DNA of 1,950 bases. It comes from Escherichia coli. GTDB taxonomy: Bacteria; Pseudomonadota; Gammaproteobacteria; Enterobacterales; Enterobacteriaceae. Each line of letters opens with the position of its first letter. The first letter of the stretch is position 1. The notes under the pieces were generated by a model, which saw only the letters and a list, made by a program, of their open reading frames with translations, made no database searches and had not been told where the DNA came from. Shown here in pieces: positions 1,042 through 1,950 of the stretch. Location: assembly GCF_003334385.1 (NCBI RefSeq), contig NZ_QOWN01000106.1; one strand, 5' to 3'. The position numbers and the translations under genes were made by a program.

Positions 1042-1122
1042 ATGAGCAAGAAATTTACAAAGACTATTCTTTCATCTGCTGTTGCCGGTCTGTTGTTGGT
1101 GAGTGGTGGGGTTGTTGCGGCA
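1042..1122 (+). other. Sec-type signal peptide of the adhesin
   Basis: The n-region has K3, K4 and K7. The h-region is ILSSAVAGLLLVSGGVV. A small-residue cleavage motif gives VVA|A or VAA|N, i.e. after residue 26 or 27. Confidence 0.8.
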
Positions 1123-1950
1123 AATCCTAAGGACGTAAATATTGGGGGCGAGTACATCGTAAAATTTTACAATGATGGGGAAGGTGCCGAGATAGTAAAA
1201 GCAAAAGGAAAAAAAGAGGTTTTATTAGGTGCTATTAATACAACAACAGGAAGCATCATGACCTTTAATGAAAAGGAGGCTGCTAAAAGTAAAACGCAGG
1301 ATGATTTTAATTCTATTGTGTATCCTGTCTACTTACCTGAGTTAAAGCTGGAAAATATAAAATCCCTAAATGTCGATGATATAAAGAAAATACAAGAAAT
1401 AAAAAAGAATGTGTCTGAGGTTGTTACATCTGCCAACTCAGCTGAGTATTTATCTGCTATAAGAAGTGGCGGTAATACTGAGGCTTACTTAGCAATTAAC
1501 AAAACATCTCCAGCTTTATCAAAAGAGTACTCTCGCATTTCTGGGAATATCGAACAGCTGAATAAAGACACCACTTTTGCAATTGACGCTGACGGCAACA
1601 TTACTCTGGATGAGACAGTCGGTACAGGTGAGCGCTATGGTGTGAAGGATGTTGTGGCTGATCTTGTTGCTGACACGACTGTGTATGCCGAAGAAGATGG
1701 TTCACTGACGATGGATAACAGTGCTCCAGCAAGAAAGCGTGTTAATGAAGCACTGGTTGACCTGGACAAATCTGTTCGTGAGCGTACCACTGTTGGTGTG
1801 AGTTCTGACGGCACCCTGACCCGTGCAGAAGGTGCAAAGAACACCATTTCTGTTAACGATGGTCTGGTGGCCCTGTCTGGTCGTACTGACCGTATTGATG
1901 CAGCAGTTGGTGCCATTGATGGCCGTGTCACCCGTAACACGCAATCCATT
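1042..1950 (+). CDS. 5' part (303 codons, 3' end outside the window) of a secreted trimeric autotransporter adhesin, Eib-like (prophage-borne immunoglobulin-binding / YadA-family surface protein)
   Basis: Frame 1 is open from ATG 1042 to the window end with no stop; all 303 codons were checked by hand. TAA at 1021-1023 closes the frame upstream, so 1042 is the first start. The N-terminus is MSKKFTKTILSSAVAGLLLVSGGVVAANPKD. The C-terminal part, ...TTVGVSSDGTLTRAEGAKNTISVNDGLVALSGRTDRIDAAVGAIDGRVTRNTQSI, shows heptad periodicity and a VxxNTxxI asparagine-at-d motif typical of TAA stalks. The gene sits directly downstream of a phage tail-fibre-region gene, which is the context described for E. 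coli eib genes (from memory). I cannot tell which eib paralogue it is. Confidence 0.92.
   Translation, partial: MSKKFTKTILSSAVAGLLLVSGGVVAANPKDVNIGGEYIVKFYNDGEGAEIVKAKGKKEVLLGAINTTTGSIMTFNEKEAAKSKTQDDFNSIVYPVYLPELKLENIKSLNVDDIKKIQEIKKNVSEVVTSANSAEYLSAIRSGGNTEAYLAINKTSPALSKEYSRISGNIEQLNKDTTFAIDADGNITLDETVGTGERYGVKDVVADLVADTTVYAEEDGSLTMDNSAPARKRVNEALVDLDKSVRERTTVGVSSDGTLTRAEGAKNTISVNDGLVALSGRTDRIDAAVGAIDGRVTRNTQSI

Follow-up and report, generated by a model that had tools for sequence, protein, structure and literature searches.

The Eib proteins allow commensal and Shiga-toxin-producing Escherichia coli to bind antibodies in the reversed orientation, to withstand complement and to aggregate. 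Earlier work has already described this family, including its carriage by prophages, its modular build and its diversity (PMC13534694, PMC12511318, PMC7568254). The stretch analyzed here, hereafter the window, is an entire E. coli contig of 1,950 bp (NZ_QOWN01000106.1). Its open reading frame (ORF) 1042-1950 is very probably the 5' three-quarters of an eib-family trimeric autotransporter adhesin (TAA) gene, a prophage moron located within a block of tail genes.

Among the named alleles compared (EibA, C, D and E), the closest one is EibA (prophage P-EibA of E. coli ECOR-9; AAF63234, AF151091), as judged from the stalk, the anchor, the upstream spacer and the missing beta-roll head. EibA was described as devoid of a YadA-like head and neck, with only an N-terminal domain (PMC7568254; PMC12511318). 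The allele of the window, called the window-type allele below, has the same type of signal peptide, also without YadA head or neck, and its saddle, IgG-Fc-binding coiled coil and anchor are identical to those of EibA at 158 of 160 positions (98.8%, residues 251-410 of the full-length allele presented below). Spacer identity is ~91-92%, and both loci have the same neighbouring genes, ORF-191/DUF4376 upstream and orf156 and orf60 downstream. Differences lie in residues 27 to ~245, which display no detectable similarity to EibA (BLASTP E=0.48, hhalign probability 0.5%), and in the number of saddle-like units, three in the window-type allele whereas EibA has two such motifs. The P-EibA spacer lacks window positions ~457-572. 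Moreover, P-EibA is lambdoid (J, lom and stf-like genes), whereas the prophage of the window-type allele carries a P22-type portal and an SU10-type adaptor.

EibC, EibD and EibE share with the window-type allele the saddle, the IgG-binding coiled coil and the anchor, and are borne by prophages downstream of an ORF-191 gene. They carry, however, a YadA-like beta-roll head (PF05658) and a neck, both absent from the window-type allele, and a Tyr (Y388 in EibD) where the window-type allele and EibA have Ala. Their spacer is short (~360 bp) and unrelated save for the last ~35 nt. ClaA and ClaB, also from E. coli, are trimeric autotransporters resembling EibG; they possess a saddle, and serum resistance was reported for them. 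They are described as lacking the IgG-binding Asp and standing in another genomic context (PMC13534694), whereas the window-type allele has the Asp and the eib context, a comparison that relies on published descriptions. YadA of Yersinia is alike in its membrane anchor and in the general head-stalk-anchor lollipop logic. It differs from the window-type allele, which has no beta-roll head, a different stalk, a location in a chromosomal prophage instead of a virulence plasmid, and no evidence of collagen binding.

The plus-strand translation of 1042-1950 gives 303 codons without any stop up to the window end. The nearest in-frame stop upstream is the TAA codon at 1021-1023, the ATG at 1042 is the first start beyond it, and the remaining five frames contain 4-34 stops each across the same positions. 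The original prediction noted that this ORF was missing from the mechanical ORF list, and this is confirmed: it runs off the window end without a stop and was left out because it is open there. As the window is a complete short contig, the ORF is cut by the end of the assembly. Its 303-residue product is recorded as a partial E. coli protein (P0001, exact match in a protein search). Within the ORF, the following features can be recognized.

1042-1119, plus strand: predicted Sec-type signal peptide, residues 1-26 (sequence features)
1120-1566, plus strand: N-terminal head domain, residues 27-175 (149 aa), low in GC (35%) and variable
1564-1899, plus strand: three tandem saddle-like units, residues 175-211, 210-248 and 247-286 (motif positions)
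1879-1929, plus strand: beginning of the left-handed coiled coil, including GRTDRIDAAVGAIDGRV, the IgG-Fc-binding motif of Eib proteins (identity to EibA)

The signal peptide MSKKFTKTILSSAVAGLLLVSGGVVA was called from sequence features. Its putative cleavage site stands before ANP and after V-V-A. The three Sec parts are all present, namely a Lys-rich start, a 19-residue hydrophobic core and the V-V-A end, and they bear out the proposal that the gene has a signal peptide of its own. The mean Kyte-Doolittle hydropathy of the core reaches 1.98, against -0.40 for the rest of the protein. This segment is 90% conserved over 33 homologues, and DNA likeness to many other eib alleles stops at ~1104-1109, just within the signal-peptide codons.

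The family was assigned with the help of the full-length allele P0002 (WP_241218466.1, 410 aa), which is identical to the window product at 302 of 303 residues; the sole difference is at residue 193, Val in the window and Ala in P0002. A C-terminal YadA-type anchor, on which the original prediction made the call depend, was found in P0002 beyond the window end (YadA_anchor PF03895, residues 352-410, E=1.4e-16). In its predicted fold, this anchor matches those of YadA, AtaA and Hia (2lme, 9vnj and 3emo), the comparison with the YadA anchor structure 2LME giving a phmmer E of 1.4e-18 and a Foldseek E of 2.2e-4 at 48% identity. As for the best hits, the top matches are Eib-family TAAs. Indeed, in a PDB sequence search, window residues 215-303 align to positions 180-267 of EibD in the crystal structure 2xqh (E=2.8e-24); the window also aligns to EibE (E=2e-24), and the P0002 stalk matches the EibD structures 2xqh (E=4.8e-32) and 2xzr (E=5.8e-27). 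At the DNA level, matches among phage records include P-EibA, P-EibC and P-EibD. Of 5426 complete E. coli genomes, 95 contain the window, in every case on the chromosome, and the annotations under these matches always read 'YadA C-terminal domain-containing protein' and 'DUF4376'.

Membership of the Eib family is thus supported by the anchor, the lower stalk near-identical to that of EibA and the classical eib gene order. Together, the anchor and the signal peptide would place the protein among the TAAs (type Vc); its stalk sequence aligns to the trimeric stalk structures of EibD. The locus was presented from the outset as known biology instead of a new system, and this view is upheld: P0002 matches phrog_9547, a PHROG family of unknown function, from end to end (E=1.2e-187), so that the full architecture is already known as a PHROG family, and the allele is an unnamed, ordinary Eib-type member.

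The saddle-like units share the form TT-x4-DG-x-L/I-T followed by a short helix, and the third of them is the Eib saddle. In shuffle tests, unit 1 against unit 2 scores z=7.8, unit 2 against unit 3 z=6.3, and unit 3 against the EibD saddle z=24. The full-length model predicts a strand-strand-strand-helix arrangement for each unit, with low confidence, and a long helix for residues 271-351. The saddle of the window TTVGVSSDGTLTRAEGAKNTISVNDGLVALS and its coiled-coil start GRTDRIDAAVGAIDGRVTRNTQSI are both identical to EibA, as are residues 251-303 altogether, critical Asp included. This residue, Asp286 (1897-1899), aligns with D391 of EibG, whose replacement by Ala abolishes IgG Fc binding (2026 study, PMC13534694), while Ala287 aligns with EibG A392 and EibD Y388. 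The pair D286-A287 corresponds to D387-Y388 of EibD in the numbering of AAF63040. IgG Fc binding is the most likely function, as judged from this near-identical module.

The published account gives the IgG-binding residues of EibD as 'D378-Y388' (PMC13534694). In the deposited EibD (L005, AAF63040), residue 378 is an Ala and the Asp adjoining Y388 is D387; the published 'D378' looks like a slip.

From near-identical modules, export, trimerization, serum resistance and aggregation can also be inferred for the window-type protein. It would be exported by the Sec pathway through its 26-residue signal peptide, and three C-terminal YadA-type anchors would form a 12-stranded barrel in the outer membrane. 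The passenger would thread out through this barrel and fold as a trimeric fibre with, from tip to base, a small head (27-175), three saddle-like minidomains and a left-handed coiled coil. As the latter includes the IgG-Fc-binding segment of EibA, the cell would be expected to bind antibody Fc, resist complement and clump.

The head is the part that sets this allele apart. A YadA head, which the original prediction listed among the TAA domains to annotate, is not present: the YadA-like beta-roll profile PF05658 hits EibC and EibD but none of the proteins of the window, P0002, L001 and L003. The allele is thus not a YadA-head TAA. Compared with the counterparts in EibA, C, D and E, the head shows no similarity (BLASTP E ~0.3-0.9), and profile comparison with the Eib N-terminal domains by hhalign gives a probability below 1%. 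The specific allele, which was held to be worth typing, could be assigned to none of the named alleles compared, as its passenger matches none of EibA, C, D and E; 10 related clusters bear only generic names in the database. When the head was modelled by itself, from 39 homologues, the prediction was confident, with a predicted local distance difference test (pLDDT) of 89.6 and a predicted template modelling score (pTM) of 0.80. The predicted fold begins with an antiparallel sheet of five strands and continues with a helical bundle, in only loose agreement with the published description of the Eib region; neither viral predicted structures nor solved structures offer a meaningful match to it. 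Among 1.84 billion cluster representatives searched exhaustively with HMMER, only 26 carry the head. The named head matches of a word-index search are all from Escherichia or Shigella and have generic names only.

The gene is a recombination mosaic. Its GC content (42.7% for the whole ORF) steps from 35.3% in the head part (1120-1566) to 50.8% in the stalk part (1567-1950), and per-segment identity to the window varies independently among 70 homologues. For instance, P0034 is 100% identical over residues 101-175, 47% over residues 27-100 and 26% over residues 246-303, whereas P0018 has a stalk 97-100% identical and a head only 43-45% identical. DNA matches to other genomes and phages break at ~1104-1109, 1362, 1555, 1618 and 1783. 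These recurring break points and the GC step within the gene point to cassette exchange by recombination between conserved flanks. The spacer with the signal peptide on one side and the EibA-type stalk with the anchor on the other bracket an allele-variable, low-GC head cassette. A more speculative proposal, which we regard as unlikely, is that the head is a distinct and narrowly distributed fold setting cell-cell specificity (self-recognition or adhesion) and swapped as a low-GC cassette between co-resident prophages, by recombination between the near-invariant 400-bp upstream region with the signal peptide and the conserved stalk, and, separately, that the long conserved spacer encodes opposite-strand prophage small RNAs acting on eib or host genes.

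Three shorter relatives, all named 'YadA C-terminal domain-containing protein', bear on the function of the window-type protein. P0017 (352 aa), P0034 (369 aa) and P0114 (377 aa) have the same head family, up to 100% identical over part of the head, together with saddle units 1 and 2. The third saddle and the Ig-binding segment are missing from all of them (identity of 14-31% over residues 246-303). P0114 occupies the same prophage position, with a second head-bearing TAA nearby, and is found on 714 contigs, compared with 5 for the window-type allele. The possibility that P0114 is ClaB was considered; the context of P0114 is that of eib. The protein could accordingly be read as a prophage TAA serving aggregation or adhesion without Ig binding, like Cla or these relatives of 352-377 aa. 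This reading draws on the head and saddle units 1 and 2 shared with P0017, P0034 and P0114, on ClaA and ClaB, which show that EibG-like TAAs can be devoid of IgG binding (PMC13534694), and on Ig binding by the window-type allele being itself a prediction. It is nevertheless improbable because the window holds the whole saddle and GRTDRIDAAVGAIDGRV identical to EibA, including the Asp needed for Fc binding by EibG. Furthermore, EibG keeps IgG binding after deletion of nearly the whole passenger, saddle included, so that a foreign head should not block binding (PMC13534694).

Taken as an Ig-binding Eib protein, the window-type allele adds little to the Eib picture. It does show that family diversity extends beyond the named alleles A-H: an EibA-type antibody-binding stalk can bear a head unrelated in sequence to those of EibA, C, D and E, and stalks without the binding module can bear this head too. 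Typing by named alleles with polymerase chain reaction (PCR) or BLAST would therefore miss or mis-type these genes.

The prophage context is best seen in the longer copies of the locus. P0002 is carried by five assemblies and is intact (410 aa) in several of them, on contigs of up to 371 kb. In the same-allele loci, the gene order is P22-type portal, capsid, SU10-type adaptor, tail fibre, DUF4376, eib, orf156 and orf60, then internal virion protein, tail tip, Lom and Hok. Strain SCU-104 displays the same series from the tail fibre to Hok. The window itself retains only one neighbouring gene.

1-234, plus strand: 3' end (77 codons and stop) of a DUF4376 / ORF-191-like gene of the tail-fibre module (Pfam DUF4376, E=4.6e-11)

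This gene corresponds to ORF-191 of the P-Eib prophages, and it is annotated ORF-191A in P-EibA and tail fiber assembly protein in PhiR5_2. Its full-length homologue in locus L006 matches phrog_1141 'tail fiber protein' (E=1.5e-77) and follows the tail-fibre gene. Downstream, orf156 and orf60 come after the window-type allele in L006, L007 and L009, as in P-EibA, C and D. The core order is the same in P-EibA, C, D and E, P-EibE showing ORF-191 and orf156 only. The order tail fibre, DUF4376/ORF-191, eib, orf156 and orf60 is thus the classical eib arrangement, and the gene order of the same-allele loci makes the description as a moron beside tail-fibre genes apt. The original prediction also relied on an AT-rich upstream region, which is real (235-1041, down to 33% GC), and on a composition unlike that of the flanking phage gene. 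The latter stands for the ORF as a whole, with 42.7% GC against 55.1% for the DUF4376 gene part, but it holds mainly for the head-coding half. In L006, a terminator-like hairpin follows the eib stop codon.

Related prophages carry further autotransporter genes close by. In L011-L014, a second TAA gene stands just past hok (~12130-13134) with a weak YadA_head match, and in L008, a serine-protease autotransporter (Peptidase_S6, 4389-6534) comes after orf156, like eaaA in P-EibA.

Both window ends (1 and 1950) lie in sequence repeated within genomes, at a median of 2-3 places per genome, and databases contain dozens of partial eib-like proteins from contigs shorter than 2 kb. Repetition at the contig ends would explain the assembly break and the many partial proteins, and short-read assemblies habitually break at the eib locus. 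This bears on whether the window could hold a dead remnant, that is, a truncated or pseudogenized eib copy. The window has neither stop codon nor anchor, and many partial eib-like proteins are found in databases. Such decay is however highly improbable, since the ORF is cut by the assembly end, the window being the entire contig, the same allele is intact in several assemblies, and the repeats account for both the break and the partial proteins. A virion structural part such as a tail fibre or tail adhesin, to which the position of the ORF among tail genes of the same orientation and weak matches to the 'tail adhesin' and 'tail protein' PHROG families could point, is the least credible of all, as these matches cover only the shared C-terminal part, the Sec signal peptide and the outer-membrane beta-barrel anchor would direct the protein to the bacterial outer membrane, and Eib proteins are experimentally located at the cell surface (PMC7568254, PMC12511318).

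Several points weigh against the assignment as an Ig-binding eib moron with its own expression. Pfam and NCBIfam scans of the 303-aa window fragment give nothing significant, so that it took the full-length allele, along with sequence searches of the PDB and searches at the DNA level, to assign the family. The anchor is visible only in the copies of other assemblies and not within the window. No resemblance to EibA, C, D or E is seen in residues 27 to ~235, and the homology of the head to the N-terminal 'Eib region' is not confirmed by sequence or profile comparison. The existence of same-head relatives without the Ig-binding module (P0017, P0114) means that the head type is no predictor of Ig binding. 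Regarding expression, the promoter-like site at 996-1024, the only one on the plus strand, is no better than chance, with 3 sites found for 4.0 expected. In addition, the hairpin past the DUF4376 stop codon (242-259) has an A-run before it and no T-run after it on the plus strand, so that read-through from the late operon into eib would be possible during lytic growth.

The region separating the DUF4376 gene from eib contains the features listed below.

235-1041, no strand: 807-bp AT-rich non-coding spacer upstream of eib, 39.3% GC (composition)
242-259, minus strand: G+C hairpin 1, 8 nt past the DUF4376 stop, a canonical intrinsic terminator on the minus strand only
242-259, 371-388 and 538-559, minus strand: three G+C hairpins, each followed by a T-run on this strand but not on the other
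~360-482 and 530-672, minus strand: a pair of degenerate tandem units
899-940, plus strand: AT-rich stem-loop of 13 pairs built on a perfect 11-bp inverted repeat (901-911 / 928-938)
954-1031, plus strand: 25-codon ORF MRAARHQIFFIYPMLNCFICIQIIL, with an AGGAG ribosome-binding site at 942-946, ending 10 nt before the eib start
996-1024, plus strand: promoter-like TTGAAC-17-GATAAT (motif match)

The spacer is present in 32 of the 5426 complete E. coli genomes, with at least 99% identity in 18 of the 32, and bears no annotation. Its proximal part (~640-1041) is nearly invariant among related loci: over 12 of them, positions 661-1050 are 98-100% identical, compared with 75-89% for the 3' end of DUF4376 and 82-89% for the first eib codons. 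The non-coding ~400 bp before eib are the best-conserved part of the locus in these 12 loci. An Rfam scan of the whole window gave no match at E<=1.

A promoter of eib's own is plausible. Expression of eib reportedly depends on ibrAB, according to Sandt, Hopper and Hill in 2002. In the promoter-like site, the GATAAT is conserved before genes of the eibA, eibC and P0114 types, and so is the TTGTATACA palindrome next to it. Two GTATAC palindromes, at 1012-1017 and 1033-1038 and 21 nt apart, flank this -10-like GATAAT. The first GTATAC is conserved together with ATAATTT before the same three types of genes, and may therefore be a putative binding site for a regulator.

Terminator-like sites are more numerous than expected (5 found, 1.4 expected). 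The three minus-strand hairpins point away from eib, toward the end of the DUF4376 gene. In the divergent loci L025 and L041, hairpin 1 retains its stem with an altered loop. Some loci disrupt hairpins 2 and 3, and the covariation check of the spacer hairpins revealed no convincing conserved RNA structure. Near the start of each tandem unit stands the exact 16-mer TACGAAAATTCTGTAT, whose plus-strand copies are at 462-477 and 639-654, and one of the three hairpins closes the unit. Folding of the 123-nt unit gives three hairpins (-29.8 kcal/mol, z=-3.8), whereas the other unit does not stand out (z=-1.1); P-EibA, without ~457-572, has a single hybrid unit. These minus-strand units are candidate prophage small RNAs.

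The stem-loop 899-940, with a predicted RNA fold of -13.8 kcal/mol (z=-3.4), is conserved in all eibA-type spacers. It corresponds to the stem_loop annotated upstream of eibA at 3777-3814 of P-EibA. The 25-codon ORF is also found in all eibA-type spacers, but was rejected as a conserved leader peptide owing to its absence upstream of eibC and eibD. A scan with the 16-mer ATACAGAATTTTCGTA was likewise discarded: its 30 matches in viral contigs are about what chance would give, by a rough estimate, and only ~10 of them are true spacer homologues. Finally, an 11-bp tandem duplication (TTCAATGGTCA twice) lies at 690-711; a single copy is present in P-EibA, PhiR5_2 and several viral contigs.

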